Assembly (NCBI GenBank): GCA_052035175.1
Contig: JBPOHV010000001.1
Coordinates: 366,773 to 430,772, forward strand
From: a candidate division WWE3 bacterium
GTDB lineage: Bacteria > Patescibacteriota > WWE3 > UBA101185 > UBA10185
Direction of reading: 5' to 3'
Length of the DNA: 64,000 nucleotides
Shown here: in pieces, positions 1 to 64,000 of the stretch
How positions within the stretch are numbered: position 1 is the stretch's first letter
Layout of the letters: the number at the start of each line of letters is the position of its first letter
Made by a program: the position numbers and the translations under genes
The notes under the pieces: generated by a model
Told to the model about the DNA's origin: nothing
Seen by the model: only the letters and a program-made list of their open reading frames with translations
Databases searched by the model: none

Positions 1-166
1 AAAAAAGAAGCAAAAGATTTGTTAAAACAAATACGGCCTTAACCTTATAATTCATTTAAAAGCTGCTTTGCTTTTTCTTTTGTTTTCTTTAAATAACCGT
101 CTGGGTCGTTTAATCCCAAAGTCATATCACAATACTGTTGTGCCAATAAATACCTTTTGTGGAATA

Positions 167-234
167 TTGGTATCGCAGTGCGAACCTACTGGTATCGCAC
201 TATCTACTGATAGTGCGTAGCTTACTGCTATAAT
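167..234 (+). promoter_or_regulatory. Promoter region with repeated GGTATCGCA(CTAT) motifs and TATAAT -10
   Basis: GGTATCGCAGTGCGA (168-182), GGTATCGCACTATC-TACT-GATAGTGCG perfect 9-bp palindrome (191-216), TATAAT at 229-234, 7 nt before ATG 241. Confidence 0.5.
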
Positions 235-240
235 TCAGGT

Positions 241-1392
241 ATGAAGATCTTATACGCTTTGAACTCGTCTCAGCCGGGAGGAATGGAGCACCATGTTTTA
301 GACTTGGTAGAAAGTATGGTCAACTTGGGGCATACAGTTTATGTATGGTTGCCAGAGGGTCCTCTAGTTTCAGACTTCGAAAAGTTGGGTGCAAAAGTGA
401 CATTAAAATACATAAAATATGAATGCGATTTTGCATATATTAGTGCTTTGATCAAATTTATAAAAGAAAATAAAGTAGAAGTTGTACATGGTCACGAAAT
501 AAAAGCAGTCATGAATGCATTGTTTGCTGCATGGCTTGCCGGTGTAAAAGCTAGAGTAGGGCATACACATACGCCAATTTCAGAATGGAATTTGACAGGT
601 CTATTAGGTATAAAAAAGTATGTGAATTTATTTTTTTATTTTATTTTTATAAACCTGTTTGTTTCATGCGAGATTGCATTGACTCCATCACGCAAAGAAA
701 TAAAAAAGAAAGAGGGTATTAGTACAAATAAGTTAGTAGTAATTCCCAATTGTGTGCGTATGTCTAAATTTGCATATTCATCTGAGCAACGTAGTTCTTT
801 TCGTAATGAAATTTTGACTAAATATGAAATGCCGTTGGATGCGATTGTTTTTGGCAATGTCAGTAGGATCAGCGAAGAAAAAGGGCATAAGATTTTGATT
901 GATGCTTTTGATGATTTTTGTAGTCGTGTAGCACATTCTGATAAGTATTATTTGCTGCTAGCTGGAGGTGGGCCTTTGGAAGCTGATTTAAAAGCGTATA
1001 TAAAAACCAAAAAGTTTTGTGCTCGTATGATCGTTACAGGTAGATTTGAAGCAGAACTTAATGCCAAATTTTTTGCTACATTCGATTTGTTTGTGCATCC
1101 GACCTTGGCAGAAGGGTTTGGAATAGTTATCATTGAGGCAATGTCTGCATGTATTCCTATAATTTGTTCAGATTTACCAGTACTCAAAGAAGTAGCTCAA
1201 GATCATGTGATGTATTTCAAAAAAGGAGATTCTCAAGATCTAAGTGAGAAATTATTTGACTTTACTATGCATGAACAGTTGTATAAATCAAAAACATCCT
1301 CAGCATATGATTTGGTAAAAAATAACTATACTTTAGAGTTGTTTGCACAAAATTATCAAAATTTGTATAAAAGACTTTTGACAAACCAATGA
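241..1392 (+). CDS. GT4-family glycosyltransferase
   Basis: C-terminal motif EGFGIVIIEAMSACIPIICSDLP, typical of GT-B GT1/GT4 retaining glycosyltransferases. N-terminal Glyco_trans_4-like region (VVHGHE). Internal hydrophobic insertion KKYVNLFFYFIFINLF. Confidence 0.8.
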   Translation: MKILYALNSSQPGGMEHHVLDLVESMVNLGHTVYVWLPEGPLVSDFEKLGAKVTLKYIKYECDFAYISALIKFIKENKVEVVHGHEIKAVMNALFAAWLAGVKARVGHTHTPISEWNLTGLLGIKKYVNLFFYFIFINLFVSCEIALTPSRKEIKKKEGISTNKLVVIPNCVRMSKFAYSSEQRSSFRNEILTKYEMPLDAIVFGNVSRISEEKGHKILIDAFDDFCSRVAHSDKYYLLLAGGGPLEADLKAYIKTKKFCARMIVTGRFEAELNAKFFATFDLFVHPTLAEGFGIVIIEAMSACIPIICSDLPVLKEVAQDHVMYFKKGDSQDLSEKLFDFTMHEQLYKSKTSSAYDLVKNNYTLELFAQNYQNLYKRLLTNQ

Positions 1393-5114: not shown

Positions 5115-5206
5115 GATATGTCTACCTGCGGTATAGCACTATGTGCTAACCTTGCTGGTATAGCACTATTTGCTTATCATACTGATATGTCTACCTGCGG
5201 TATAAT
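5115..5206 (+). promoter_or_regulatory. Promoter region of the ABC-F gene with the same GGTATAGCACTAT motif and direct repeats
   Basis: GATATGTCTACCTGCGGTATA duplicated (5115-5135 and 5183-5203). GGTATAGCACTAT duplicated (5130-5142 and 5157-5169). TATAAT at 5201-5206. Confidence 0.5.
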
Positions 5207-5212
5207 CAGCGC

Positions 5213-6655
5213 ATGATAATAGTCAAAGGGCTTGAAATAAAGTTTGGCGAGCGCTTAATTTTACAAAATGCCAACTTTTTCTTGGGAAACGGGAAGAAGA
5301 TAGGTGTTGTGGGTAAAAATGGATGTGGTAAGTCGACTTTATTTAGAGTTCTTACTAACAATGAAATATATACAGATGGTCATATAGACATTCAACACGA
5401 AATTATTGGGTATATTCCTCAAGAATTTACGTTTCCTGATGAAATGGTGGGGGAGTATTTAGAAAAGTTTTTAGAATCTACGTGGGATTTTTACAAAATA
5501 GAAATGTATGCCGAACAAGTAGAGTTCACGAACTTTGATATATATCAGCCGCTTAACACGCTAAGCGAAGGTCAGAAAATGAAAGTTAAGTTAATAGAAA
5601 CAATGTTGAAAGATGCGACGACACTTTTCATTGATGAACCAACAAATCATTTGGATATCGAAGGTATTATGTGGTTTGAAAATTATGTCAAAAGTCTAAA
5701 TACTACTGTCGTAATGATTTCACATGATAGATCATTTCTAAACCATACCGTAGATGAAATCTGGGAAATTGATAAATTTGAACTTTTTCAATTTGTAGGA
5801 GATTACGATAATTACAAAGAACAAAAGCTTAAGCTTATAGATAAGTGGAATCAAGAATACGTAATGTTTCTCAAGAAAAAAGCACAGCTAGAAGTGTTGC
5901 TTGAGAATGTTCGTAAAATTAAAGATGGTAAAAAGCGTGGTCGAGCAGTACAAGCTGCAAAAGCAAGAATCGATCGAGAATTGAATTCTGATAAAAAAGA
6001 AAAGTATGTATCCAAAAAAGTTAGCTTGATGGAGTTCAATACTGAAGCTCATCAAAAGAAATTGATGCTTGGTGTAGAGAATTTAGAAAAGAAATATGGT
6101 GAAAAATTAATATTCAAAGACTTAAGTTTTGAACTGCGTGGTACAGATAAGCTCTGGTTGCTTGGTCCAAATGGTGCGGGTAAATCTACTTTGGTAAAAA
6201 TAATTATGGGAGAAGAGCCTATTACAAACGGAAACGTGAAGCTTGGTTACAATGTGAAAATCGGGTATTTCTCTCAAGTGCAAAAGCAGTTGAATCTAGA
6301 AAATGTCGCTCTCGAAGAATTTATTGCAAAGACCAAGTGTTTTCATGCAGAAGCTTATGGTTATCTCAAAAAGTTTTTATTTGATAAAAATGCTTTGAAA
6401 AAGCAAGTAAAGTTTTTTAGCCCTGGCGAACGCGCGAGATTTGCTTTTTCTATTTTTGCTTACTTTGACTATGATTTATTGATTTTGGACGAACCTGATA
6501 ATCATTTGGATATCGAGACAAAAGAGGTAATGGAAACAAGCTTGCGCGAATTTAAAGGAGCAGTATTACTAGTTTCGCACGATAGATATTTTGTAGAAAG
6601 TGTAGGTGTTGATCAAGTACTGAATCTTAAAGAAGGTGTGATTAGTTACTATTGA
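5213..6655 (+). CDS. ABC-F family ATPase (two tandem ABC domains, no TMD; EttA/Uup-like translation factor)
   Basis: Two Walker A motifs (GKNGCGKSTL and GPNGAGKSTL), LSEGQK/FSPGER signature motifs, and a charged linker between the domains. Confidence 0.85.
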   Translation: MIIVKGLEIKFGERLILQNANFFLGNGKKIGVVGKNGCGKSTLFRVLTNNEIYTDGHIDIQHEIIGYIPQEFTFPDEMVGEYLEKFLESTWDFYKIEMYAEQVEFTNFDIYQPLNTLSEGQKMKVKLIETMLKDATTLFIDEPTNHLDIEGIMWFENYVKSLNTTVVMISHDRSFLNHTVDEIWEIDKFELFQFVGDYDNYKEQKLKLIDKWNQEYVMFLKKKAQLEVLLENVRKIKDGKKRGRAVQAAKARIDRELNSDKKEKYVSKKVSLMEFNTEAHQKKLMLGVENLEKKYGEKLIFKDLSFELRGTDKLWLLGPNGAGKSTLVKIIMGEEPITNGNVKLGYNVKIGYFSQVQKQLNLENVALEEFIAKTKCFHAEAYGYLKKFLFDKNALKKQVKFFSPGERARFAFSIFAYFDYDLLILDEPDNHLDIETKEVMETSLREFKGAVLLVSHDRYFVESVGVDQVLNLKEGVISYY

Positions 6656-8302: not shown

Positions 8303-8338
8303 AGTTTTCGAGTTATGTACTCCTGATATAATAGCATC

Positions 8339-9499
8339 ATGTCAAGACGCATTGGTATAGATGCTAGGTTTTATGGTAAAGCTGGGCCAGGAAGATACAC
8401 AAAGAACATAGTTCAGCATTTGGAAAAAGTTGATACACAAAACGAATATCTAATCTTTTTAACAAAAGAAGGGTATGACATGTATACACCCAAAAATGCT
8501 AATTTTCACAAAGTGCTAGCAGATTATCATTGGTATTCATTTGAAGAACAATTTGGGTTTCTTTGGTTATTATTAAAAAGCAAGCTAGATCTGTATTATG
8601 TTCCACATTTTAATATTCCAGTGTTATACCCAGGAAAAATAATAACAGCTATCCCAGATATGACGATGCATAAATTTAGCACAGAGAAAGGTACTACTCT
8701 GCCTATTTGGTATTTTAGACTTAAAAAATACGTATACAAAGCTGTGTTTTGGTGGGCAGTATTTAGATCGCAAAAAGTTATCGTGCCTTCGCAAACTGTT
8801 TTGAATGACTTTCTGTCTAATCTAAATTTTTCAAATGATAAATATGTTTTGGTCTTAGAAGGAGTTGATCCAGATTTGTTACATATTGATGTAGATGTAG
8901 AAAAAGTTTTGGCTAAGTATCGAGTTACAAAACCCTTTATTTTATATGTAAGTAGTATGTATGAGCATAAGAATGTGCCAGGCTTGATAGAAATGTTTAA
9001 GCTATTGGTTGAAAAATATGGTTATAAAGGTAATTTTGTACTCGTAAGTAAAAAAGATAAATTTTCACAAAGAGTTTATCAACAAATAAAAGCTATGGGA
9101 TATCAAGATAAAATCTTATTTCCTGCATTTAGAGTTGATTCAGATCAAGATATTGTAGTTTCTGATAGCGAAGTTGTTGCGTTTCGTAGATCTGCAGATT
9201 TGTATGTGTTCGCATCTTTTACCGAAGGTTTTAGTTTGACTGCTTTAGAAGGTATGGTAGAAGGCTTACCAGCAGTGCTTTCTGATATTGATTGTCATCG
9301 AGAAATTTATGAAGATTCCGTTTTGTATTGTGATCCTCATAATCCAAGTGATATAGCAGAAAAAGTGAATACTATGCTGACAGATAAATCATTGTTTGAT
9401 GAATATAAGAAAAGAGGGTATGAGCAAATAAAGAAATACGATTGGCTAAAAACTGCAGAGATCACTTTAGATGTTTTTAAGTCATCATTGGAGATTTAA
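8339..9499 (+). CDS. GT4-family glycosyltransferase
   Basis: Motif FTEGFSLTALEGMVEGLPAVLSD (E-x7-E GT4 signature). Confidence 0.8.
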   Translation: MSRRIGIDARFYGKAGPGRYTKNIVQHLEKVDTQNEYLIFLTKEGYDMYTPKNANFHKVLADYHWYSFEEQFGFLWLLLKSKLDLYYVPHFNIPVLYPGKIITAIPDMTMHKFSTEKGTTLPIWYFRLKKYVYKAVFWWAVFRSQKVIVPSQTVLNDFLSNLNFSNDKYVLVLEGVDPDLLHIDVDVEKVLAKYRVTKPFILYVSSMYEHKNVPGLIEMFKLLVEKYGYKGNFVLVSKKDKFSQRVYQQIKAMGYQDKILFPAFRVDSDQDIVVSDSEVVAFRRSADLYVFASFTEGFSLTALEGMVEGLPAVLSDIDCHREIYEDSVLYCDPHNPSDIAEKVNTMLTDKSLFDEYKKRGYEQIKKYDWLKTAEITLDVFKSSLEI

Positions 9500-10623
9500 T
9501 CTGTAGTAAAAACTTCTAAAAACTTTTTTGCTGTTTGGTTCCATGAATACTTTTTTGCGATTTCTTGTGCACGTTGTAAAGCCATTGGTTGTGACAAAGC
9601 TTCATGAATGCCTTGGCTAATATTGTTGATATCAAGTGGATTTACATAAACAGGATATTCTTCGCCAATTTCATTGAACGCAGGAATATTAGAAACAATA
9701 GCTTTTGTTCCGCAAGAAATCGCTTCTAACAAGGGCAAACCAAAACCTTCATCTAAAGAACAATTTATAAAAGCTTCAGCGCCGCTATACAGTGCAGGTC
9801 TGTCTTCATCGGGAATACGCCCAATATAAATTACTTTGTCTTTATTAGCGTTCATGCTATTTACAGACTCATCATATTCCCAGCCAAGCTTCCCAGCGAT
9901 TACCAATTTTATCTCAGGTATCGATTTAACTGCTTCGACCATTCGAGGAACATTTTTACGTGGTTGAATCGTTGATAAAAAGAATAAGTATTTGCCGTTG
10001 ATATTATACTTGTTTCGTATAGTATCGATTTCACTTTCATTTCGTTTATAAAATTCTTCACCCACAGCTTCTGGAATTACATCTATTTTTGATTTATTTA
10101 TAAAAAGATAATTAATTTCAGTTTTCACTTTGTTAGAAGGTACTATTATTTTGTGAGATGTAAGTAATGTCCACCACAATACAAATGGGTGAAGTAATTT
10201 ATGTATAGGTTTTTTGGAATACTGGTTATTTATTTTGTATTCAAATCCATGAAGCATGCACACAGTTTTTTGAAAAAACCTAGAGATTGAAGGTACTGTG
10301 TGAAATGGAGTAAAAAAAACATCGACTCGGTTAGTCATCAATTCTAGTAACAAACTTATTTGTGTCCATGAAATTAACTTTGGTAAGACTTTGTATGTAA
10401 TATTATTTTTGTTTGTAAATAATTTGGTGATTAAGTCTTTATTTGGTTCATTTTCAAAATACACAATATAGTCATTAGTTTTGTCTATCTCAGAAAGTTT
10501 TGTATACAAGTGAAGTGCAAATTGCTCTGGGCCAGCTAGTCCTGAGCGTGTCAACATTTGTCCGTTTAAACCTATTTTCATGCTTTGATTATATCTTTTA
10601 ATTATATCTTTGTATCGATGCAT
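9496..10623 (-). CDS. GT4-family glycosyltransferase
   Basis: Motif LDEGFGLPLLEAISCGTKAIVSN. The likely true start is the internal MKIGLNGQ (near 10581), which would shorten the N-terminus by 14 aa. Confidence 0.8.
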   Translation of the reverse strand: MHRYKDIIKRYNQSMKIGLNGQMLTRSGLAGPEQFALHLYTKLSEIDKTNDYIVYFENEPNKDLITKLFTNKNNITYKVLPKLISWTQISLLLELMTNRVDVFFTPFHTVPSISRFFQKTVCMLHGFEYKINNQYSKKPIHKLLHPFVLWWTLLTSHKIIVPSNKVKTEINYLFINKSKIDVIPEAVGEEFYKRNESEIDTIRNKYNINGKYLFFLSTIQPRKNVPRMVEAVKSIPEIKLVIAGKLGWEYDESVNSMNANKDKVIYIGRIPDEDRPALYSGAEAFINCSLDEGFGLPLLEAISCGTKAIVSNIPAFNEIGEEYPVYVNPLDINNISQGIHEALSQPMALQRAQEIAKKYSWNQTAKKFLEVFTTD

Positions 10624-39998: not shown

Positions 39999-40059
39999 AG
40001 GTGGGCGAGATGCTCGTGAAGAAGATCGCATGATCAGATATCACGGCATCCGCCCACTA
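39999..40059 (+). repeat. Structured hairpin repeat, copy 2 (GGTGGGCGAGATGC...GCATCCGCCCAC)
   Basis: Same architecture as 39086-39148. The GGTGC/GCACC to GATGC/GCATC and CATGG/CCATG to CGTG/CACG changes keep the pairing intact. Confidence 0.7.
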
Positions 40060-40153
40060 AACCAAGAAGAAAGTTTCTATCAGCCTTTGGATCTCTGAAA
40101 GCAAAGATTGGTAGAAGCCTTCTGCTAAGAAGGTAAACCACAAGGAGGCAGTA

Positions 40154-40603
40154 ATGTTTTTTGTAGCGATATTGCGTAAGTTTTGGTGGATCTTGCCTGT
40201 GGCAATGGTGATTATGTTAATCGCTATGGCTATGGGAGTAGGAGATCCCGCTCCGGTTTTACCAGAGACAGAAACACCCGCCAATGAAGTTAGTGCATTA
40301 TGTACTGATTTCTTCGGCTGGTCCGTTGTGGATAGTACTGACTTTGTCAGCGCTGAATATGTGAATGGCGACATTTACGTAGAGTGGACCAATAGTGGTC
40401 CGAATCCACGCATTATGGGGGTGAACTTTTATGGCTGGATCGTCAAAGATCCACAGCCTGGTGTACATCTGGAAATTCCTCAGGGTATTCTGCTCCTCAG
40501 TGACGATGGACAAATATTGTCCATCTTACCTACAGGGCAGGATCCAGTGGTGATTGAAATAGGCACAACCTGCCTGCAAAAGCCACTGCCTACCAGAGGA
40601 TAA
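40154..40603 (+). CDS. small exported protein (island gene 4)
   Basis: RBS AAGGAGG 5 nt upstream of the ATG. N-terminal TM/signal WWILPVAMVIMLIAMAMG. 149 aa. Confidence 0.45.
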   Translation: MFFVAILRKFWWILPVAMVIMLIAMAMGVGDPAPVLPETETPANEVSALCTDFFGWSVVDSTDFVSAEYVNGDIYVEWTNSGPNPRIMGVNFYGWIVKDPQPGVHLEIPQGILLLSDDGQILSILPTGQDPVVIEIGTTCLQKPLPTRG

Positions 40604-40606
40604 ATT

Positions 40607-40671
40607 GAGCGGTAGATCGCTGTAGATAGTCCAAATCAGGACGCAATCTCTACGCGATCTACCGCTTTTTC
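40607..40671 (+). terminator. Rho-independent terminator with large structured loop
   Basis: GAGCGGTAGATCGC...GCGATCTACCGC followed by TTTTTC. Perfect 13-bp stem. Confidence 0.65.
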
Positions 40672-40786
40672 AGTTTTATACTAATGACTCATCAAATGAT
40701 ACTAGTTCTGCTTAACTCAGTTTCACTCATGCCCTCATACCTCATAGTGCTAGTATGCCGCTATTAATCTGATTAAAGGAGATGCC

Positions 40787-40990
40787 ATGTTAGTACTAAC
40801 TAAGAATACCGAACTTACCTTGTTTGGTATAAAAATTACGTTTGTAAATAACAGTTTGGATTTTTCAGCTGCATCCGAACTGGATGTTTTGTATGTCCCA
40901 GATTCCAATCCAAGAATTGTAAATGTTTGTTATCGGAATCGATCAATTTTTGTTGTGCAGCTACACGACATGCTTATTATTTCATGGTAG
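40787..40990 (+). CDS. small hypothetical protein (island gene 5, 67 aa)
   Basis: RBS AAAGGAG 5 nt upstream of the ATG. No TM helix. Confidence 0.3.
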   Translation: MLVLTKNTELTLFGIKITFVNNSLDFSAASELDVLYVPDSNPRIVNVCYRNRSIFVVQLHDMLIISW

Positions 40991-41048
40991 TTACCTTCAA
41001 TACCCAACAGTTTGGCATAAAGACCAAACTACAAATAAGGAGAATCTG

Positions 41049-41303
41049 ATGAAACGCTTTATGAAAAACCCGTTGATAACCTGGCTCGTACTTCTTGTTT
41101 TACTAACACCATTTTGGTGGTTAGCAAATGGAGGGGGCCGTGAGATAGATCTACCGCTAGCTCTGTCGGGGGTTAATGCATACATATTAATGTATGCATT
41201 GATTACTCGTGAAAAGGGTGACGCGCTCTTTTTGTCATTAGTCTATGCCGTTGCAGGACTTGTGATGCTAGGGTTTTCTTGTTATCTGATTATTATAGGG
41301 TAG
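41049..41303 (+). CDS. small 2-3 TM membrane protein (island gene 6)
   Basis: RBS AAGGAG 6 nt upstream of ATG 41049. Begins MKRFMKNPLITWLVLLVLLTPFWW. Confidence 0.4.
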   Translation: MKRFMKNPLITWLVLLVLLTPFWWLANGGGREIDLPLALSGVNAYILMYALITREKGDALFLSLVYAVAGLVMLGFSCYLIIIG

Positions 41304-41310
41304 AAAGAAA

Positions 41311-41373
41311 AAGGCGGTAGGTTTGCTGAGTACATTAATCAATGATTGATGCGCTCGCGATCTACCGCTTTTT
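41311..41373. terminator. Bidirectional rho-independent terminator sharing its 3' arm with the 40607-40671 terminator
   Basis: GAAAAAGGCGGTAG...GCGATCTACCGC followed by TTTTTC. Sits between convergent genes. The 18-nt 3' arm is identical to the 40654-40671 arm. Confidence 0.6.
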
Positions 41374-41379
41374 CTTTTC

Positions 41380-42783
41380 TTATTTATAGTAATCGTTTAA
41401 TTGACTATATGGCACTATCTTCATATCTGGGTTTTGTGTTAGCAAGTCTTTTTGTAACTGCAGATCTAACGTATCATCTCTGAATATCACAGCTTTTATA
41501 TCTTTACTAGAAACATGCATATTTCTTGGTTGTTTCGTATAACCTTTACTTGGATGCAACACGCCTTCTACGTATACACCATTGCCCTTCATTGCGCCTG
41601 CTTCAGGCGTTCCTGGTAAATATGTATAGCTCATGTGTTTTTCTATTTCAAATACTTCTCGGAATGCATGTACCATTCTTGCATCAACAAGTGAAAGCAT
41701 TTTGATTAAAGTTCCATCTGCAAATTCATGTCGTCCTATTGGTTCTCCTCGATCACCATATGTATATTCAACTCTTAAGGCTAGTGCTTCGTTGAAATGA
41801 ACAAAGATAGGTCTTTTTTTGCCCCATTCGTAGCGCTCGCCAGTTTTTTTTGAAATAAGTGCCCCGTACAATACAGAGTAAGGTTCGTTATTAACGGTTG
41901 CTTCTAATTGGGCTGGTGCGGTTGCATTCGAAAAAATAATAGTGTCGTATATTTCTAGTATCTGTTGTTCTAGTTCGTCTACTTGCATTGTGTCTATTAA
42001 TTCCGCTGCTTGAGAGTCCACTATCTCAATAGGTGAATCGCCAAGAGTGTGTTTTAATAATTCAATTGCTTCCCTCTGTTCGTTGGAATCAGCAATATTG
42101 TTGTATATTGTTTCTACCGCTTTTTCTATTTCGAGTTTTATTTTGTTTTGTATTTTTTCGCGTGTTAAAAACTTGCCAACTTTTTCAATAACTGCTATAG
42201 CCGCATTTTCACTTGTTTGCTTATTAATAGCAGTAGTTATGTTTTTTTCTGTAAATAGTGGTTCTTCTTGTATATTCTCAACTAGATGTATAAACTGAAT
42301 AACGGTTTGATTAGGCGCAGAAAAGTTTTCTAAGAAAAGTTCGTTTTTAGCCTCATCACAATCAACATCAGCGATGTTTACGCCTTTAACCTGTATTTGT
42401 ACACCACTCTCAGACTTAACCAGGCTATATTCATCTGGTAATCTTTTTTTTAATATTTCGATATCAGTATTTAATTTGGCAAATAGTATGGAGTGATCGC
42501 TTGCATTTGTTTTAAAAGAAATAGACATGAGTTCATTATCAGGAGTTTCCATTCTTATACTAGGTCCTGCTCCTAGTGTATCGATATATACTTTACACGC
42601 TTTAACCAAAGTGTCTGCGTGTGCAGTTTCATCTTCTATTACTTGTGTAAAATTCGCATACCTAGCAATTTTTTTGGTGTATGTTTCTAATAGTTCCAAC
42701 TTTAAATTTTCTTGGCTTGTTTGAACCTCATCAGCAGTGTTTTCAATATGAACTTCTTTTTCACTGGTTATATCATCAAGCAT
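41380..42783 (-). CDS. hypothetical protein (467 aa, acidic N-terminal half)
   Basis: Long ORF with no recognisable catalytic motif. Co-directional with the upstream 94-aa gene and separated from it by 8 bp. Confidence 0.5.
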   Translation of the reverse strand: MLDDITSEKEVHIENTADEVQTSQENLKLELLETYTKKIARYANFTQVIEDETAHADTLVKACKVYIDTLGAGPSIRMETPDNELMSISFKTNASDHSILFAKLNTDIEILKKRLPDEYSLVKSESGVQIQVKGVNIADVDCDEAKNELFLENFSAPNQTVIQFIHLVENIQEEPLFTEKNITTAINKQTSENAAIAVIEKVGKFLTREKIQNKIKLEIEKAVETIYNNIADSNEQREAIELLKHTLGDSPIEIVDSQAAELIDTMQVDELEQQILEIYDTIIFSNATAPAQLEATVNNEPYSVLYGALISKKTGERYEWGKKRPIFVHFNEALALRVEYTYGDRGEPIGRHEFADGTLIKMLSLVDARMVHAFREVFEIEKHMSYTYLPGTPEAGAMKGNGVYVEGVLHPSKGYTKQPRNMHVSSKDIKAVIFRDDTLDLQLQKDLLTQNPDMKIVPYSQLNDYYK

Positions 42784-42790
42784 GTAAGGT

Positions 42791-43075
42791 TTATGCTTCT
42801 CCTTGTACTAGTTTTCTCCAGTCAGTTTTTGATGGAGCAGCCGTTGGGGTTGCTTGTTTTTCATCTTTAGTGGGCTCTTCTGTTAAACCTTCAAGTTTTA
42901 TGTCAGCTGCTTCTGCTGTTTCGGCTTGGACTTCTGGTGTTCCTTGACGCATCATAGCTGCTATTCTGTTCATCGTTTTTGAGGTAATTATCGTTTCTGG
43001 TTGTTTTTCATTTGGTGTTTCATTTGTACCTGTAACTTCCGAAAGTCTTTCTAATGGCATATATTTTCCTTTCAA
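42791..43075 (-). CDS. small acidic hypothetical protein (94 aa)
   Basis: First gene of the putative two-gene operon. Low-complexity Glu/Thr/Ala/Pro-rich sequence. Confidence 0.4.
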   Translation of the reverse strand: MKGKYMPLERLSEVTGTNETPNEKQPETIITSKTMNRIAAMMRQGTPEVQAETAEAADIKLEGLTEEPTKDEKQATPTAAPSKTDWRKLVQGEA

Positions 43076-43266: not shown

Positions 43267-46200
43267 ATGAACAAACCAAACAATTCAGCCTTAACACATA
43301 TAATCGTCAAAGGTGCTCGCCAGCACAATTTGAAAAATATCGACCTAGAAATTCCAAAAAATAAAATGGTCATATTCACAGGAGTTTCTGGTAGTGGTAA
43401 GTCATCTATGGCAATGGATACTATTTATGCAGAAGGTCAAAGACGTTATGTAGAAAGTTTGAGTTCATACGCACGCCAATTCTTGGGAGTTATGGATAAG
43501 CCCGACGTCGATAGTATCGAAGGTTTATCCCCAGCAATTGCGATCGATCAAAAAACTACTTCAAAAAACCCTCGCTCTACAGTAGGCACTATTACAGAAG
43601 TTTATGATTTCATGCGTTTACTTTATGCAAGAGTGGGGCATCCGCATTGTCCAAATTGCGGACGCGAAGTCCAACGACAGTCGTCTGAAGAAATTGTAAA
43701 TCAAATATTTTCATTAGCTGAAAGTGATACAAATTTTAAATCTGAGCGTGGTTCGCGTTTTATTATTTATTCACCTATAGTTAGAGATCGAAAAGGTGAG
43801 TTTTCTTCGCTTTTTGATAATTTAAAAAAGCAAGGCGTAGTGCGTGCGCGCATTGATGGCAAAGTTTATGAACTCTCTGAGCAACTTACTTTAATTAAAA
43901 CAAATAAACATACTATAGACGCATTTTTATCAAGACATATTATAAGCAAAAAAAGACTGGCAGACGATGAAAAGAATATACGTTCTACTATCTTTCAAAG
44001 TATCGAAACTGCTTTACGCATGAGTAACGGCCTGGCGTTGGTTTCGTTTATCAAAGATAAAGACTTTGATTTTTCTGAAAATCCCAAAGAAGTCGAAGAT
44101 CACTTATTTTCAGAAAACTTTGCTTGTCCATTTTGCAATATATCTTTGCCAGATATAGAACCACGAAGTTTTTCTTTTAATTCTCCTCATGGTGCATGCG
44201 CCGAGTGCGATGGTTTGGGCACAAAGTTGGTTATAGATGAATCCACAGTTTTAAATAAATCTTTAACAATTAAAGAAGGCGCAATATTACCTTGGAATAA
44301 ATTGTTTGAGCACAATTCGTGGACGCAACTTGTTATTGACGCAGTCGCAAAAGAGCACAATATACCTTTGAATATCGAAGTTTCCAAAATGACAAAAGAA
44401 CATATGGATATTGTTTTGTATGGTACTGGTGATGTGAAGCATAAGATCAATTACACAAACAAAGAAGGTGACATGCACAATTTTAATGCTAGATATGAAG
44501 GAGTTATTCCAAATTTATTACGCAGACACAAAGAAACTCAATCTGACTATGTACGAAACGAAATTGAAAAGTATATGGTTTTGTATCCGTGCAGTGTGTG
44601 TAACGGTGACAGACTAAATAAGCATGCGCTTTCTGTAGTTATAGATTCACAAAATATTGCGCAGATCTCGAATTTATCAATAGAACACGCCGTCACTTGG
44701 TTTAATGAAATTACCACAAAGTTTAATTTACGCGAGCAAACTATAGCCGAGCCCATAATGAAAGAAATTAATTACCGTATGAAGTTTTTGCTAGACGTTG
44801 GTCTGGGATATTTAACTTTGAGTAGAGCTTCTAGCCATTTATCTGGTGGAGAAGCTCAACGCATACGGTTAGCTTCGCAAATTGGTTCTGGTTTATCTGG
44901 TGTTTTATATGTTTTAGACGAGCCATCTATTGGACTACATCAAAGAGATCAGGGCAAGCTGATCAAAACTTTGCACCATTTAAGAGATTTGGGAAATACT
45001 GTTTTGGTAGTAGAACACGATGAAGAAACAATGTTACAAAGTGATTATATTTTTGATTTTGGTCCAGGCGCGGGTGAACATGGTGGAAAAGTTATTGCCG
45101 AGGGTACGCCAGCACAACTGATGAAAGATGCAAATTCACTGACTGGAAAGTATTTATCAAGGCGCTTGGTCGTGGGTCAAACTGATGTAATATCAAAGAA
45201 AAAAAGTAAAAAGAAATTTGAATTTGATGATGGTTTTATAGACGCAGAAATTTCTGTAAAAGATGTAAAAGGAAGATCACTATCTATCATTGGGGCTTCA
45301 GGTCGTAACTTAAAAAATATTGATGTAGAGATTCCATTAGGAAAGCTCGTTTGTGTAACAGGTGTATCTGGAAGCGGTAAGTCTACATTGATTATGGATA
45401 CATTACATAGAGCTTTGCGCCAAAGATTTGCTTTAAAAAATGAAGAGCGACCAGAGCCATTTAGAGATATGACAGGGTTGGAACATATCGATAAAGTAAT
45501 CGCAATTGATCAAACGCCAATTGGTCGTACACCAAAATCTAATCCAGCAACTTATACAAAAGTATTTGATTTGATACGCGAGTTATTTGCACAAACTCAA
45601 GACTCTAAAATCCGTGGTTACAAAGCAGGACGATTTAGTTTTAATGTAAAAGGTGGTAGGTGTGAAGCTTGCAGTGGTGAAGGCCAAGTCAAAATTGAAA
45701 TGCAATTTATGCCAGATGTTTATATTAATTGCGAAGTATGTGAAGGCAAAAGATATAACAAAGAAGCTTTGGAAATACATTTTAGAGGCAAAAATATCGC
45801 AGATGTTTTGGATATGACTATTGAAGAGGCATTAGAGTTTTTTGCAAATCATGAAAATATTAGAAGAAAAATACAAGTGTTATACGATGTAGGTTTGAGT
45901 TATATAAGACTTGGTCAACCAGCTCCAACGTTATCTGGAGGAGAAGCTCAAAGAGTTAAGTTAGCTTTAGAGTTGGCAAAAAGATCTTTTGGTTCGACTT
46001 TGTACATTTTGGATGAACCTACTACCGGTCTACATTTTGCTGATCTCGAAAATTTGATAACTATTATGAAAATATTGACTCGTCGCGGTAATACTGTGTT
46101 AGTTATAGAACATAATTTGGATATAATCGCCAATAGCGATTGGATTATCGATCTCGGTCCCGAAGGCGGAGATAAAGGTGGTGAACTAGTTTTTTCAGGT

Positions 46201-46284
46201 GACTTAAAAGCATTGCTAAGTTGTAAATACTCACATACAGCAACAGCCCTACGAGAAATACAACAAAAACCTTTGACGCAATAA
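43267..46284 (+). CDS. uvrA: Excinuclease ABC subunit A
   Basis: Two ABC ATPase modules (GVSGSGKSS and GVSGSGKSTL), zinc-finger Cys clusters (CPNCGRE, CPFCN, CEACSGEG, CEVCEGKRYN), C-terminal SHTATALREI. Start set at ATG 43267. Confidence 0.95.
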   Translation: MNKPNNSALTHIIVKGARQHNLKNIDLEIPKNKMVIFTGVSGSGKSSMAMDTIYAEGQRRYVESLSSYARQFLGVMDKPDVDSIEGLSPAIAIDQKTTSKNPRSTVGTITEVYDFMRLLYARVGHPHCPNCGREVQRQSSEEIVNQIFSLAESDTNFKSERGSRFIIYSPIVRDRKGEFSSLFDNLKKQGVVRARIDGKVYELSEQLTLIKTNKHTIDAFLSRHIISKKRLADDEKNIRSTIFQSIETALRMSNGLALVSFIKDKDFDFSENPKEVEDHLFSENFACPFCNISLPDIEPRSFSFNSPHGACAECDGLGTKLVIDESTVLNKSLTIKEGAILPWNKLFEHNSWTQLVIDAVAKEHNIPLNIEVSKMTKEHMDIVLYGTGDVKHKINYTNKEGDMHNFNARYEGVIPNLLRRHKETQSDYVRNEIEKYMVLYPCSVCNGDRLNKHALSVVIDSQNIAQISNLSIEHAVTWFNEITTKFNLREQTIAEPIMKEINYRMKFLLDVGLGYLTLSRASSHLSGGEAQRIRLASQIGSGLSGVLYVLDEPSIGLHQRDQGKLIKTLHHLRDLGNTVLVVEHDEETMLQSDYIFDFGPGAGEHGGKVIAEGTPAQLMKDANSLTGKYLSRRLVVGQTDVISKKKSKKKFEFDDGFIDAEISVKDVKGRSLSIIGASGRNLKNIDVEIPLGKLVCVTGVSGSGKSTLIMDTLHRALRQRFALKNEERPEPFRDMTGLEHIDKVIAIDQTPIGRTPKSNPATYTKVFDLIRELFAQTQDSKIRGYKAGRFSFNVKGGRCEACSGEGQVKIEMQFMPDVYINCEVCEGKRYNKEALEIHFRGKNIADVLDMTIEEALEFFANHENIRRKIQVLYDVGLSYIRLGQPAPTLSGGEAQRVKLALELAKRSFGSTLYILDEPTTGLHFADLENLITIMKILTRRGNTVLVIEHNLDIIANSDWIIDLGPEGGDKGGELVFSGDLKALLSCKYSHTATALREIQQKPLTQ

Positions 46285-49520: not shown

Positions 49521-49946
49521 ATGTATAATTTACATATGCTCAAGTCGTTCTTAAGATCTGTTTTTTTCACTTACGTGTCGTTTTATGTGGTGAATGGTAT
49601 TTTGAATGTCTTGACTTTGGATATTAGAGAATACATCATTTTTATCTTAGGTTTATCTTTGTTCCATTTGTCAGTTAAATCTGTTTTGAACCTTGTAGGT
49701 TTGCCCTCGGCAGGAATTAGTCTGTTTATTATAAAAGTAGTTTTAGTATTTGTTTTACTTATGTTGTTTGTATCTTTTGTTCCCAATTTTTTCATAAAAG
49801 CATCGACGATATCAGGCATTGTGTTTTTTGGTTATATAGTCCCAGATTTATATATGACTAATATTTGGGCTACTGTAGCAATGTCATTATTGAGCACATC
49901 GCTATTTGGCTTTTTTGACTGGATGTGCCATACTTCAGGCAAATGA
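49521..49946 (+). CDS. hypothetical small membrane protein
   Basis: 141 aa with four hydrophobic segments. No motif recognised. Confidence 0.4.
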   Translation: MYNLHMLKSFLRSVFFTYVSFYVVNGILNVLTLDIREYIIFILGLSLFHLSVKSVLNLVGLPSAGISLFIIKVVLVFVLLMLFVSFVPNFFIKASTISGIVFFGYIVPDLYMTNIWATVAMSLLSTSLFGFFDWMCHTSGK

Positions 49947-56907: not shown

Positions 56908-56995
56908 ATCTCGATTTAACTCCTTTTTAAATTTCTTATCACTAAGCCAAAACTGAGTTATCCACAATTGCAGTGACAACAAAAACCGGCGAAGC

Positions 56996-57038
56996 TACAA
57001 TTTGCATTACATTGTATACACGTTACAAATATGTAAAC
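56996..57038 (+). promoter_or_regulatory. Two adjacent inverted repeats upstream of nrdJ (TACAAT-N9-ATTGTA; TTACA-N4-TGTAA)
   Basis: Seen directly in the sequence. Resemblance to NrdR boxes is weak. Confidence 0.3.
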
Positions 57039-57144
57039 ATTCATATATCGATTCTCTAAAAAAATAATATTAAGTTAAAAAATCTTTGAGCTGCAACAAA
57101 CTTCTAGCAGTGGATGGTTGCTGCCGTTTAAAGTCGACTGCTCT

Positions 57145-59846: not shown

Positions 59847-62741
59847 ATGTCTGATACACATACTGAGAAAACTATTCCTCAATTAGAAGAGGAAATGCTG
59901 GCTTATTGGAAAGAGAATACTATTTTCGAGAAGTCTGTTTCTCAGCGCCCTTCTGATAACTCATATGTTTTTTATGATGGACCTCCATTTATTTCCGGTT
60001 TACCACATTATGGTCATTTCTTAGCTTCAATCGCAAAAGATATAGTTCCCAGGTATTGGACTATGCGAGGTAAGCGCGTAGAAAGAGTATGGGGGTGGGA
60101 TGCCCATGGTTTAACCGTTGAAAATAAAGTTCAAAAAGAACTGGGTATCAAAGATCGTCGTGAAATAGAAAACTTTGGGTTGAGTAAATTTACTGAAGCT
60201 TGTTACAAATATACATCTGCAACATCAGCAGAATGGCCATGGTATATAGAACGTATTGGTCGCTGGGTCGACATGGAGCACGCATATAAGACTATAGACA
60301 CCTCATATATGGAGTCTGTTATGTGGGCATTTAAGCAGCTTTATGATAAGAAATTAATTTATGAAGGTATGCGTACATCTTTATATTGCACTACATGCGG
60401 CACGCCTGTTTCGAATTTTGAAGTTGCCATGGATGATACTTATAAAGAAGTTGAGGATCCCGCAGTTACAATCAAATTCAAAATAAGTACACAAGGTAGG
60501 TTTGAAAATATGTTTGTACTAGCATGGACTACTACGCCATGGACGTTGCCTTCAAATAGAGCTTTGGTTTTAGACAAATCTGCTGATTATGCTTTGGTTG
60601 AATATGACATGGCGACTTATATTCTAGCTGTTTCTCGAGTAGCAGAAATCTTCAAAGATAAACAATATAATGTAATTGATAAAGTAAAAGGTGCCGATTT
60701 AGTTGGTCTTGCTTATGAACCTTTGTATAAGATTTATGCAAACAATGACAATGATTTCAAAATTTACCATTTTGACAATATGGTAAGCGCCGATGAAGGT
60801 ACTGGAGTTGTACATAGTGCTCCAGGATTTGGTGCTATAGATACACAAATGGGATTTGAAAGCGGACTCACTTTGATGACATCTATAGACGACGAAGGTA
60901 AGTTTACGCAAGGTAATAATGAAGCTAATCCATATTTTGGACTTTATTACAGTAAAGCAAATCCATTAATAACATATGATCTAGAGAAAAGGGGATTGTT
61001 ATTTGAAAATTCCAAAATACTTCACAGATTTCCATATCACGATAGATGCAATACGCTTTTGATTCAAAGAGCGCAGCACTCTTGGTTTTTACGAGAAACA
61101 GAAATGACTAAAGCTTTGTTAGACAATGCAGAACCCATAAAGTGGGTTCCAGATCATTTGAAAAATGGATTATTTAAATATGTTATCGAATCGGCACCAG
61201 ATTGGTGTATTTCACGCAACCGTTACTGGGCGACTCCAATGCCCGTATGGGAAAGCGCAGATGGAGATCGGTTAGTATTGGGAAGTATAAAAGAAATCGA
61301 AGAGTTGTCTGGTCAAAAAGTAAAAGATCTGCACAGACCTTATATAGATGAAATAGTTATACATAAAGATGGCAAAGAATATAAACGCAGAGTAGAAGTA
61401 CTAGACTCTTGGTTTGAAGCAGGTTCAATGCCGTTTGCACAATGGCATTATCCTTTTGAAAATAAAGAAAAGTTTGAACAAAACTTTCCAGGCGATTACA
61501 TCGTAGAGTATATAGCTCAAACTCGTGCGTGGTTTAGAGTGTTACATGTTATTTCTGTAGGTGTTTTTGATACTCACGCTTTTAAGAATGTAGTTTGTAC
61601 AGGTGTTTTAGCTGGTAATGACGGTCGTAAAATGAGTAAAACCTATGGTAATTACACAGATCCAAAAGAAGTTTTACAAACCGTAGGCGGAGACGCAGTG
61701 AGACTATACTTTATGAATTCTCCTCTACTTACAGGAGGCGGCACCAATTTTGATTTTGACGCGATGAAAGTAAAATCTAGAAATGTTATAAATCCTTTGT
61801 TAAATTCTTTGAAATTTTTTATGATGTATACGCCAAAAGACAATTGGCAACCAGACCTTGAAAAATTATCAGAAAATGTTTTAGACAAATGGATAATGAT
61901 ACGGCTAAACGAAACAATAAAAGGCTTTTCCGATAATATGGAAAATTATTTGATTGCTGATGCCGTTCAATACATAGAAGACTTTGTAGATGATTTATCT
62001 CGATGGTATGTACGCCGATCACGAGAACGTATAACTTCGGGTGATAATGATGCTCTAAATACTTTGTTTACAGTTTTATACAAGTTTTCACTTGCTTCTG
62101 CTCCTACAATACCGTTTTTATCAGAAAGAATATATCAATCTTTAAAATCGTACGTACCTTCTGCTAAAGAATCGGTGCATTTAGAAGATTATCCGCAGTA
62201 CGATGCAGATTTATTAACTGACGAATCTAATATTTTAGTAAAAATGAAAAATACCAGGGATGTGGTTTCAATAATTCTGGCTATGAGGTCATCTGCAAAT
62301 GTAAATCTAAAGGTACGTCAACCATTACAAAATGCATTTGTAGTATTTGACGAGACAGTAAAAGCAAATGAGTACGGTCTTTTTGTAGATATAGTTCAAG
62401 ACGAAGTAAATATTAAAGAAGTAAGTATACTAGATAAAGTGCCTGTCAGCGTTGATACAAATGTGTTTGCTTCTATGCAACTAGATGCAAATAGCGTTGT
62501 CTATTTAAACAAAGAAATCACCGAAGACTTGCGTCTAGAAGGTATGGCACGTGATTTTATAAGGGCTATCCAAGATTTGCGTAAAACAAAAGGTTACAAT
62601 ATAAGCGACAATATCGATGTTACATATCCTGATACTGAAGAGTACAAAAAACTTATGGACATGTTTGGTCCATTTATCAAGTCTAAGGTGACTGCACGTA
62701 ATTTTGTGCCAAGTACTTCTCTCGATGTACTAAAGATTTAA
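59847..62741 (+). CDS. ileS: Isoleucyl-tRNA synthetase
   Basis: HIGH-type motif PHYGH; WGWDAHGLTVE (matches IleRS GWDCHGLPIE rather than ValRS); WTTTPWTLPSN; KMSKS-type GRKMSKTYGN. Confidence 0.9.
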   Translation: MSDTHTEKTIPQLEEEMLAYWKENTIFEKSVSQRPSDNSYVFYDGPPFISGLPHYGHFLASIAKDIVPRYWTMRGKRVERVWGWDAHGLTVENKVQKELGIKDRREIENFGLSKFTEACYKYTSATSAEWPWYIERIGRWVDMEHAYKTIDTSYMESVMWAFKQLYDKKLIYEGMRTSLYCTTCGTPVSNFEVAMDDTYKEVEDPAVTIKFKISTQGRFENMFVLAWTTTPWTLPSNRALVLDKSADYALVEYDMATYILAVSRVAEIFKDKQYNVIDKVKGADLVGLAYEPLYKIYANNDNDFKIYHFDNMVSADEGTGVVHSAPGFGAIDTQMGFESGLTLMTSIDDEGKFTQGNNEANPYFGLYYSKANPLITYDLEKRGLLFENSKILHRFPYHDRCNTLLIQRAQHSWFLRETEMTKALLDNAEPIKWVPDHLKNGLFKYVIESAPDWCISRNRYWATPMPVWESADGDRLVLGSIKEIEELSGQKVKDLHRPYIDEIVIHKDGKEYKRRVEVLDSWFEAGSMPFAQWHYPFENKEKFEQNFPGDYIVEYIAQTRAWFRVLHVISVGVFDTHAFKNVVCTGVLAGNDGRKMSKTYGNYTDPKEVLQTVGGDAVRLYFMNSPLLTGGGTNFDFDAMKVKSRNVINPLLNSLKFFMMYTPKDNWQPDLEKLSENVLDKWIMIRLNETIKGFSDNMENYLIADAVQYIEDFVDDLSRWYVRRSRERITSGDNDALNTLFTVLYKFSLASAPTIPFLSERIYQSLKSYVPSAKESVHLEDYPQYDADLLTDESNILVKMKNTRDVVSIILAMRSSANVNLKVRQPLQNAFVVFDETVKANEYGLFVDIVQDEVNIKEVSILDKVPVSVDTNVFASMQLDANSVVYLNKEITEDLRLEGMARDFIRAIQDLRKTKGYNISDNIDVTYPDTEEYKKLMDMFGPFIKSKVTARNFVPSTSLDVLKI

Positions 62742-63799
62742 TGCTCAAAAAAATTAATTTTGTATTTTGTATTGTTCCTATATTGATCTTTGCCATGAGT
62801 GCTTTGACAATGTATTCAGTGGGGAATACTTTGTTGAAACAGCATATACTCGTGTTTTGTATTGGGTATATTTTGTTTTTTGCTATTTCACTCGTTGATA
62901 TTGAGGTTTTACGATACTATTGGCAGTATTTATACATCTTTATCGTTGCAACTTTGGGTGTAACCCACATACTAGGAACTATTAAGCTTGGTGCCGCAAG
63001 ATGGATTAATTTAGGATTATTTACTGTTCAGCCTTCAGAGTTTGCAAAAGCTGTTACAATTTTATCTTTGGCTTCATTTTTATCTTTTAGTAAAGAAGGT
63101 ATTTCAAACTATAAAACCTTTTTAAAATTTATTTTGTTGGTTATCTTTATTGCGGCTTTTGTAATATTTCAACCTGACCTTGGTACAGCGTTGATTGTAT
63201 TATTTGCTTCATTAGGTATAGGGGTTATAGCAGGTGTTAATCGTAACTATATATTGTTTTTTGTTTTATCTTTGGGTATTTTGTCTTATCCTGTATGGAC
63301 GTCACTATATACTTATCAGCAGCAACGTATCTTGGTATTTATTGATCCTACAATTGATAGTTTAGGCGCAGGTTACAATGTTTTACAATCAATTATTGCA
63401 GTGGGGTCGGGTGGTGTATTTGGTAAAGGTTTGGGGAATGGGACTCAAGCAATGCTCAACTATTTACCGATTTATTGGACAGATTTTATGTTTGCTGCAT
63501 TTGCAGAAGAATGGGGGCTTATTGGAATTATTGTTTTCCTAGCTTTATACGTGATTTTGCTATTATCAATATTGTTTGTAGCGTATAAAGTCGATACGAC
63601 ATTTGCATTGATGATTAGTATAGGTGTGTTTTGTGTTTTTTTTGCTCAATTTGTAATAAATGTAGGGATGAACTTGGGAGTGATGCCAGTGACAGGTATT
63701 CCTTTACCTTTTATGTCATACGGAGGTAGTTCTATGGTTGTGTCATTTATATTATTGGGTATGCTTCATAGCGTCTGGATCTACCAGACAAAAAATTAA
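62741..63799 (+). CDS. rodA: SEDS-family protein RodA-like (second SEDS paralog)
   Basis: Multi-TM protein ending PVTGIPLPFMSYGGSSMV. ATGA overlap with ileS. Confidence 0.8.
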   Translation: MLKKINFVFCIVPILIFAMSALTMYSVGNTLLKQHILVFCIGYILFFAISLVDIEVLRYYWQYLYIFIVATLGVTHILGTIKLGAARWINLGLFTVQPSEFAKAVTILSLASFLSFSKEGISNYKTFLKFILLVIFIAAFVIFQPDLGTALIVLFASLGIGVIAGVNRNYILFFVLSLGILSYPVWTSLYTYQQQRILVFIDPTIDSLGAGYNVLQSIIAVGSGGVFGKGLGNGTQAMLNYLPIYWTDFMFAAFAEEWGLIGIIVFLALYVILLLSILFVAYKVDTTFALMISIGVFCVFFAQFVINVGMNLGVMPVTGIPLPFMSYGGSSMVVSFILLGMLHSVWIYQTKN

Positions 63800-63858
63800 T
63801 AATATAGTATATTTAATTTAGAATTTAGTATCTAAATTTTCTTTATTGAGAAATAATT

Positions 63859-64000
63859 ATGCAAGAAATATCATTATCACTTAATAACAATGTTTTAAAG
63901 CTTACAGTTTTACATAAAGGTGCTTATAAAAAGATTTCTGCGCATGTTCCATCGGATATATGTGAGGGGAGCAAGATACTAGATCAAGATGGGTTCAATA
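63859..64000 (+). CDS. partial ORF (5' fragment), unknown function
   Basis: ATG 63859, MQEISLSLNNNVLKL..., runs off the end of the window. Confidence 0.2.
   Translation, partial: MQEISLSLNNNVLKLTVLHKGAYKKISAHVPSDICEGSKILDQDGFN

Follow-up and report, generated by a model that had tools for sequence, protein, structure and literature searches.

Probable coexistence of leaderless or coupled core genes and structured, Shine–Dalgarno-led accessory cassettes in a 64-kb stretch of a candidate division WWE3 genome

Patescibacteria are known for reduced ribosomes and few biogenesis factors, and translation that makes sparing use of the Shine–Dalgarno (SD) sequence is known from the Bacteroidota, where work on Flavobacterium johnsoniae reportedly showed that translation is SD-poor, that the anti-SD is retained and that a handful of strong SDs occur. 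Leaderless genes are a feature of group C of GeneMarkS-2 (Actinobacteria and Deinococcus-Thermus), in which a Pribnow box lies 6–8 nt before leaderless gene starts (PMC6028130). Here we consider a window of 64,000 nt from a candidate division WWE3 bacterium of the Patescibacteriota (assembly GCA_052035175.1, contig JBPOHV010000001.1, positions 366,773 to 430,772), which is compact, has a GC content of 35.9% and carries strong SDs in front of eight small open reading frames (ORFs) lying in three GC-richer inserts. A full-text literature search found no report of leaderless dominance or of SD usage in Saccharibacteria or the candidate phyla radiation.

Like those of the Bacteroidota, most genes of the window lack an SD and a few have strong ones; there, however, the mRNAs are leadered and an A-rich upstream motif stands on internal genes too, whereas in the window a positioned −10 box precedes genes with their own upstream region and a few internal ones. 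The likeness to group C lies in the Pribnow box at first-in-operon starts, the SD on leadered genes and the presence of a compositionally atypical gene class, and the difference in that internal genes, which normally carry an SD there, have none in the window, where the SD is found only on small accessory ORFans (PMC6028130). We consider it probable that two gene architectures coexist in this genome, one of leaderless or translationally coupled housekeeping genes and the other of leadered, SD-led, structured accessory cassettes.

SDs were scored at every candidate start as the best duplex with ACCUCCUUU in positions −20 to −3, together with any AGGAG or GGAGG 4–10 nt upstream. None of the 49 non-island genes has a strong site, their duplexes being weaker than −7 kcal/mol with no AGGAG or GGAGG at that distance, and the statement of an earlier sequence-only reading that core genes begin without an SD is thus upheld for the window. 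Each of the eight inserted ORFs has, 5–7 nt before its ATG, the motif (A/T)AGGAG(G), which is rich in purines and can pair with CCUCC; the duplex energies range from −7.3 to −12.5 kcal/mol. Counted over the whole window, AGGAG is no commoner than chance (69 copies against 66.7 expected), and the signal is therefore one of position and clustering: ten + strand copies fall within 38.1–41.1 kb, and seven of these stand in front of an ORF start. Two orphan copies have no ORF behind them, namely AAGGAGG at 38667–38673, which pairs with GCCUUCUU to form a hairpin of −32 kcal/mol ahead of SD95, the fourth of the inserted ORFs described below, and AAGGAG at 39976–39981, just past the stop codon of SD235, which is kept in a sibling strain. 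A borderline exception is a 467-aa ORFan of native composition (41380–42783, − strand), which has AAGGAG 15 nt upstream, within the preceding ORF.

All eight ORFs, named here by the length of their products, lie on the + strand. They are SD82 (start 24839; TAGGAG, spacing 7 nt), SD107 (32723; AAGGAGGT, −12.5 kcal/mol), SD99 (38168; AAGGAG, 7 nt), SD95 (38789; AAGGAG, 6 nt), SD235 (39265; AAGGAG, 6 nt), SD149 (40154; AAGGAGG), SD84 (41049; AAGGAG, 6 nt) and SD67, a doubtful 67-aa ORF (40787; AAGGAG, 5 nt). In three of them the SD places the start downstream of the longest-ORF start: 38735 does not fit the SD of SD95, the TTG at 39247 is not the start of SD235 and 40923 is not that of SD84. The assertion that all genes of the GC-rich segments have AAGGAG at good spacing needs amending to this extent, that the spacing of 5–7 nt stands for eight ORFs but 24839 has TAGGAG and 40787 is doubtful. 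Two starts had also been said to share an identical extended initiation cassette; the full strings differ (AAGGAGTTAGCAAATG against AAGGAGTTAGTAATG, with one spacer 1 nt shorter), and what both have in common is the 10-mer AAGGAGTTAG and an upstream TTATGTT.

The expectation that SD complementarity would track composition was confirmed for the window. GC at third codon positions (GC3) is 0.34–0.45 in the SD-led ORFs against 0.15–0.33 in the rest (Mann-Whitney p=1.6e-7), and the z of the codon-usage likelihood runs from −3.4 to −6.1 (p=2.7e-8), with the exception of SD67, whose values are native-like; the association of the SD with atypical codon usage and GC3 gives a Fisher p=3e-8.

The SD-led ORFs are real genes. 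By position-specific composition, seven of the eight score best of all six frames in the annotated one, and six of the eight begin with a signal peptide, a lipoprotein signal or a transmembrane segment. SD149 has a ratio of nonsynonymous to synonymous substitution rates (dN/dS) of 0.26 against its allele on L083, a 1.5-kb NCBI metagenome contig from a sibling strain, which indicates purifying selection. An artefact, whether mis-assembled foreign reads or non-coding hairpin arrays with spurious ORFs, draws something from the fact that palindromic GC-rich DNA yields ORFs on both strands (for example 32635–33015 on the − strand) and from the weakness of SD67, yet it is scarcely credible: a Logan assembly (L081, L082) shows identical junctions, the junction between island and native gene recurs in the independent L083, and coding periodicity, purifying selection and signal peptides all speak against it. 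A 46.7-kb Logan contig from SRR34217543 carries three proteins of the window, two of them cassette proteins.

The core genes of the window whose identities are backed by Pfam include GT4/GT1, RsmB, GlyRS, the MraZ/MraW/PBP and MurA/FtsW/MurG/FtsQ/FtsA/FtsZ clusters, LCP, a response regulator, a histidine kinase, PpsA, Eno, LexA, UvrB, UvrA, UvrC, SecG and RNR; the name IleS is that of the sequence-only reading, as 59847–62741 lay outside the Pfam scan. In front of these genes a different signal is found. Of 51 genes, 12 have a TAnnnT hexamer ending exactly 6 nt before the start, where 1.7 would be expected at any one position (Poisson p=2.6e-7), and 21 have one at a distance of 5–9 nt. The fuller form TATAAT-N6-ATG occurs six times in the window (1.74 expected), on the + strand at the GT4 start (229–243), and further at 5201–5215, 8327–8341 and 35326–35340, at 10579–10593 (− strand) and at 49524–49538, where the ATG is internal. 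At uvrB (33224–33243, + strand) there is an extended −10 element, TGTTAGAAT, whose TAGAAT (33226–33231) lies 9 nt before the ATG at 33241.

This arrangement is shared by relatives. Eight genomes (L001–L008) with UvrB 63–71% identical, labelled Candidatus Saccharibacteria or Patescibacteria metagenome-assembled genomes, were retrieved from GTDB; the remaining UvrB matches of that retrieval are at most 58% identical. In all eight a hexamer (TAGAAT, TATAAT, TACAAT or TTATAT) ends 6 nt before the ATG or GTG of the uvrB orthologue, in six of them with an upstream TG (the TGnTAnAAT form), and at the ppsA and His_Phos orthologues hexamers of the −10 type, in many cases preceded by a TG, likewise stand a few nt ahead of the ATG or GTG. 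The TAnnnT peak at 6 nt appears also in L002, L003, L005 and L007, regardless of their GC. Core genes with their own upstream region would thus be transcribed as leaderless mRNAs, because the −10 box ends 6 nt before the start and a start site about 7 nt after the hexamer would be the A or G of the start codon. Twenty-one genes overlap the upstream gene or lie at most 24 nt from it; internal genes such as eno, ftsZ, the histidine kinase gene and mraW have no SD, and a few (MurG, FtsA and hyp467a) have a −10 box as well. Since such downstream cistrons overlap or abut the preceding stop codon, translational coupling is suggested for them.

In the scheme that we infer, which covers transcription start sites, anti-SD use, mode of transfer and function, a native gene with its own upstream region would have a sigma-70-type −10 box (TAnnnT, often TGnTAnAAT) 6 nt (range 5–9) before its start, so that transcription would begin at or near the AUG or GUG, and native downstream cistrons, overlapping the preceding stop or lying within about 20 nt of it, would be read by coupling or re-initiation; neither class would need an SD. 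An accessory unit would consist of a short or structured 5' untranslated region, a strong SD, a small ORFan, in most cases a secreted or membrane protein, and a long hairpin at the 3' end. Such a structured, leadered message could not go leaderless and would presumably be recruited through a canonical anti-SD, evidently retained by the clade, and the cassettes would be gained, lost and recombined among related strains. The lack of SDs in the core would follow from its reliance on leaderless initiation and coupling, and not from an inability of the lineage to use them.

That the clade can use SDs is suggested by the relatives. The lexA gene has an SD in seven of the eight (AAGGAGG in L001; AAGGAG in L002 and L007; AAGGA in L003, L004, L005 and L008), and in L006 and the window a leaderless-type −10 box takes its place, in the window as TTGACA-18-TACTCT-8-ATG (32533–32577, − strand); lexA would therefore appear to switch its start architecture within the family. 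The lexA–uvrB control region also holds a motif, TACCGAA-N7-9-CGAA-N2-3-(A)TGTCAAG (TACCGAA...CGAA..ATGTCAAG, 32547–32577), which is present in L001–L006 and L008 as well, and this conserved motif is a possible LexA operator, one that would overlap the −35 element of lexA (CTTGACA, − strand). A vertically inherited membrane-protein gene following a PBP-like gene is led by GAGGAGGTGA in L003 (16981), by AAGGGGGTGA in L004 (9134) and by GAGGGGGTGA in L006 (15028), the SD core being GGAGGTGA or GGGGGTGA, and its products in L003 and L004 are 63.5% identical. The His_Phos homologue of L006 has the SD GGAAGGAG, and a gene for a secreted protein in L004 combines the SD AAGGAGGTG with host-typical GC3. 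Taken from these start regions, SD-led initiation appears to be native to the clade. The clade would also have a canonical 16S tail, because the SDs of the relatives complement UCACCUCC; a canonical 16S 3' end, ...GAUCACCUCCUUU, would be expected in this genome, and scans of the 64-kb window for tRNAs and with Rfam gave no matches and no rRNA.

Small SD-led membrane or secreted genes near lexA, uvrB and uvrA were observed in the relatives too, at 13830–14066 in L003, 5179–5778 in L006 and 5478–6524 in L004. The L003 example has a GC of 0.59 against 0.43 and is hyper-structured (z −4.3); those of L006 and L004 are neither.

These observations bear on the proposal that the SD-led genes point to a donor lineage with SD-dependent initiation. 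No such lineage was found or is required, and SDs on vertically inherited genes of the relatives (lexA and the membrane-protein gene) speak against the proposal. In its fuller form it would have the genes imported recently from an SD-dependent donor, keeping the GC and ribosome-binding sites of that donor, so that an SD would mark foreign DNA in a non-SD host. Atypical GC3 and codon usage, insertion with respect to synteny, presence or absence at strain level, ORFan status and long hairpins unlike the short native terminator would all fit. We nevertheless think such an import unlikely, as the spacers of the islands are at native GC and the GC excess coincides with selected RNA structure, neighbouring lineage-specific genes are native in composition and lack an SD, and the dN/dS of 0.26 together with structure kept in divergent alleles indicates long residence in the lineage.

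Searches for homologues of a donor were equally unrewarding. None of the eight SD-led proteins was matched in Pfam, PHROGs or NCBIfam. When three of them were searched in a collection of 5.8 billion proteins, SD235 and SD107 found only themselves and SD149 found a single homologue, that of L083, 85–87% identical; HMMER against 1.84 billion representatives gave SD235 only a weak PKD-like repeat match and low-complexity matches. No relatives came from IMG/VR scans with three cassette proteins or from a scan of JGI metagenomes with an SD149 alignment, and a single-sequence AlphaFold2 model of SD235 was unusable (predicted local distance difference test score 44.8).

The accessory status of the SD-led genes is well supported. 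Up to eight relatives lack the SD-led inserts at the syntenic intergenic positions, and the gaps concerned are short there: the lexA–uvrB gap is 705 bp in the window and 77–187 bp in six relatives, and that between the LCP and response regulator genes is 980 bp against 187–339 bp in L008 and L005. The SD107 insert separates the TACCGAA...ATGTCAAG motif from the uvrB −10 box. The uvrB–uvrA interval ranges from 1.3 to 6.5 kb across the relatives, in whose loci no homologue of the genes from 35338 to 43075 was found. Within this interval, a 703-bp cassette (40672–41374, + strand), which contains SD67 (AAGGAG 40776–40781, ORF 40787–40990) and SD84 (AAGGAG 41037–41042, ORF 41049–41303, 84 aa with about three transmembrane helices), is present in the window and absent from L083. 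It is flanked by an exact 19-nt direct repeat, CGCGATCTACCGCTTTTTC, at 40653–40671 and 41356–41374, where none is expected by chance; the repeat is the 3' arm and U-tract of two terminators, H3 and H4 (41305–41376), and on L083 (1240–1492) an H3-type terminator is joined directly to sequence corresponding to the window from 41375 onward. The use of the SD as a simple marker of foreign DNA therefore survives in part: the SD-led genes are indeed accessory, as the synteny gaps and the L083 indel show, but lineage-specific genes of native composition (35338–37982 and 41380–42783) have no SD.

The sibling strain also carries divergent alleles of the neighbouring genes. Its SD235 allele (L083 1–627) is near-identical from the TPTPTP linker onward and highly diverged in the N-terminal half, where likeness is seen by eye only, and in SD149 the synonymous divergence (dS) is 0.12 over the first 100 codons and 0.80 over the remainder; the AAGGAG of SD149 is kept there and its spacer changed. 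Mosaic alleles of this kind are what would be expected if the SD-led genes had evolved in situ, as native fast-evolving envelope loci that originated in recombination hotspots through de novo gene birth or through duplication, with GC3 and codon bias raised by selection for structure or by GC-biased gene conversion. The islands moreover reuse modules (AAGGAGTTAG with TTATGTT, the 5' arms of hairpins H1 and H2, and a 19-nt 3' arm that is the same in H3 and H4), their spacers are at native GC, structure is maintained in the highly diverged allele and homologues are found only in the sibling strain. On the other hand, the genes are absent at the syntenic sites of all eight relatives, the SD107 insert with its inverted repeat of about 29 nt interrupts a conserved promoter region in the manner of an insertion, and the contrast in GC3 between paired and unpaired positions is uninformative, being reproduced by shuffled sequences. 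An origin in situ is possible, though we lean against it.

Two further kinds of mobile unit offer themselves for comparison. Phage morons and genomic islets are independent units of promoter, gene and terminator with deviant composition. The units of the window are like them in having their own SD and terminator and a deviant composition, in lying between conserved genes and in varying between strains, and unlike them in having no prophage context, no PHROGs or IMG/VR relatives and hyper-structured coding regions. As in integron cassettes, small ORFs are arrayed in the same orientation, an imperfect inverted repeat (about 60–75 nt) stands behind each of them, and gain or loss occurs at the repeat, the indel falling exactly at the conserved 3' arm of a hairpin; the hairpins might accordingly be attC-like sites for an unrecognised recombinase nearby. 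Such a site-specific array is nonetheless very improbable. No IntI, attI or attC core sites (RYYYAAC or GTTRRRY) are present, the flanking ORFs 35338–36741 and 41380–42783 have no tyrosine recombinase or any other match in Pfam, NCBIfam or PHROGs, ordinary U-tract terminators make up three of the five hairpins, and homologous recombination between the 19-nt repeats would explain the indel. Scans of Pfam, PHROGs and NCBIfam found no integrase or transposase, and the inserts are bounded by short direct or inverted repeats only. The 20-nt core of the inverted repeat was also considered as a multi-copy mobile element and rejected, as a metagenome scan returned one chance match in a high-GC methyltransferase gene (L084).

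A second direct repeat, of 21 nt with 86% identity and a 14-nt exact core, AAAGGTATTATGTT, occurs at 37962–37982, at the stop codon of the Trans_reg_C gene, and again at 39230–39250, just upstream of the SD of SD235. It could be a −10 or promoter module common to the two sites, or a chance match, an exact core of this length being by our estimate near chance for a 19-kb region.

A further, unexpected property of the SD-led units is an excess of RNA structure. Behind every island gene stands a hairpin of 60–80 nt (z −6.7 to −9.9; −34 to −43 kcal/mol), with a U-tract in three cases, and the strongest 80-nt folds of the window lie nearly all in the islands, ORF interiors included. With z taken against synonymous-codon shuffles for ORFs and against dinucleotide shuffles for whole units, the ORF values are −8.1 for SD107, −6.2 for the N-terminal half of SD235, −5.9 for SD149, −4.1 for SD99 and −2.8 to −0.6 for the others; eight of nine SD-led segments fall between −8.1 and −1.8 (SD95 at −0.6), compared with −0.23 ± 1.06 for 18 core segments. 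The L083 alleles are as strongly structured, the diverged N-terminal half of SD235 included (z −7.6 for SD149 and −5.6), and the vertically inherited SD-led genes of the relatives are not hyper-structured. Of 15 ORFs, hairpins and inserts compared, 14 fold more stably as the sense than as the antisense strand (the exception being SD82) and 12 have more G.U pairs in the sense fold, so the feature belongs to the sense-strand RNA. A two-sequence covariation analysis was set aside as too shallow and biased by RNAalifold.

The individual units, all on the + strand, differ in how far this structure extends. The SD82 unit (24826–25087) has its TAGGAG at 24826–24831 and an 82-aa ORFan (24839–25087) with no hydrophobic segment, a GC3 of 0.40, a codon likelihood z of −4.75 and the annotated frame best of six; a hairpin lies upstream (24796–24817) and a structured 3' region at about 25094–25235. 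The SD107 insert (32586–33116) is bounded by the outer inverted repeat of about 29 nt (32586–32613 and 33089–33116), within which a 16-bp stem (32688–32703 with 33062–33077) closes the 5' end on the 3' end. Its SD (32710–32717) leads an ORF of 107 aa with a signal peptide (32723–33046), which contains seven consecutive hairpins, has G at codon position 1 at a frequency of 0.40 and reads best of six in the annotated frame; the unit has a minimum free energy of −193 kcal/mol (z −11.9), and in the centroid structure neither the SD nor the AUG is paired.

In the third insert, the SD99 unit (38155–38546) has AAGGAG at 38155–38160, an ORF of 99 aa (38168–38467) with an N-terminal transmembrane or signal segment and a terminator hairpin with U-tract (38469–38542; −43.5 kcal/mol, z −8.8). 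The SD95 unit (38661–39148) begins with a 5' hairpin (38661–38725), has AAGGAG at 38777–38782 and an ORF of 95 aa with three to four hydrophobic helices (38789–39076), and ends in hairpin H1, which lacks a U-tract (39087–39147; −40.3 kcal/mol, z −9.9). The SD235 unit (39253–40058) has AAGGAG at 39253–39258, an ORF of 235 aa (39265–39972), whose product has a lipoprotein-like signal ending ...FMAAC and a TPTPTP linker, and hairpin H2 (40000–40058), and the SD149 unit (40142–40676) has AAGGAGG at 40142–40148, an ORF of 149 aa (40154–40603) with an N-terminal transmembrane segment and terminator H3 (40603–40676), the whole unit giving z −8.1.

The structure also qualifies the reading of composition. 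Non-hairpin island spacer has a GC of 34.3% and native intergenic sequence 34.0%, against 44.3% in the hairpins; as the spacer is at native GC, the excess of GC is found only where there is structure, in the ORFs and hairpins. The GC-richness of the cassettes is associated with RNA structure no less than with any foreign origin, and composition alone cannot establish a foreign donor in the window. A difference in GC3 between paired and unpaired positions (0.50 vs 0.305) was tried as evidence that GC follows structure and discarded as circular, since synonymous shuffles give 0.50 vs 0.30.

Compact, very stable folds and small membrane proteins are characteristic of hok-type (type I toxin) mRNAs. 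The SD107 unit resembles these in the pairing of its 5' and 3' ends, and small membrane proteins are common to both; the SD-led proteins, however, have 82–235 aa and not fewer than 60, and the SD is exposed in the predicted fold. An Rfam scan, which was the one search made for an antisense partner of the SD-led units, gave no match. A bolder reading would define the units as portable cassettes of an undescribed kind by just these traits, a compact hyper-structured mRNA closed 5' to 3', an exposed strong SD and a small envelope protein, circulating among strains of a Patescibacteria lineage that has all but given up the SD in its own genes for leaderless (GUG starts included) and coupled initiation; we rate it as decidedly improbable. 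The structure of such cassettes might then reflect an RNA or single-stranded intermediate of spread, or a regime of mRNA stability and translation suited to symbiosis-related surface proteins.

Several points weigh against the coexistence of two architectures as set out above. Leaderless transcription is read from motif position alone, and the starts of Wzx (8302), MraZ (20246), DedA and RNR fall into neither the leaderless nor the coupled class. An 89-aa ORFan of native composition (42791–43060, − strand) is preceded, at 7 nt from its ATG, by AAGGA, a weak SD (−5.9 kcal/mol). Promoters of the cassettes were not convincingly identified in scans, those with promoter and terminator consensus sequences being uninformative, and for the origin of the cassettes the searches found no donor, mobility gene, or viral or metagenomic relatives. 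Finally, the view is of 64 kb from a genome of about 925 kb, and native SD-led genes may exist elsewhere.

If the coexistence of the two architectures holds, a leaderless start model is advisable for gene calling in Saccharibacteria-like genomes. Longest-ORF starts are wrong in the window at 10623 (for 10581) and 16808 (for 16823), besides 38735, 39247 and 40923. In this lineage the SD would serve as a cheap flag for leadered accessory units and not as proof of foreign origin, and GC-based island calling is confounded by RNA structure. A near-SD-free core combined with a small SD-dependent set of hyper-structured mRNAs encoding secreted and membrane ORFans would be a testable feature of translation in the Patescibacteria. 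For the cassette proteins a role in host interaction is conceivable, because they vary between strains.

Some neighbouring features were recorded alongside. The RNR gene is preceded by an upstream untranslated region of 237 nt (56908–57144) with no Rfam match and no −10 box by the start, which may be a real leader, a case with few parallels among the core genes. In the variable uvrB–uvrA interval, two lineage-specific genes at 35338–37982 encode an ORFan of 467 aa and a protein of 412 aa whose C-terminal part is a Trans_reg_C domain, both genes having native composition, leaderless or coupled native starts and no SD. The 3' ends of uvrA (+ strand) and a transglutaminase-like gene (− strand) overlap convergently by 140 nt (46145–46284), an overlap that is absent from L005 and recurs in similar form, over about 100 nt, in L006.

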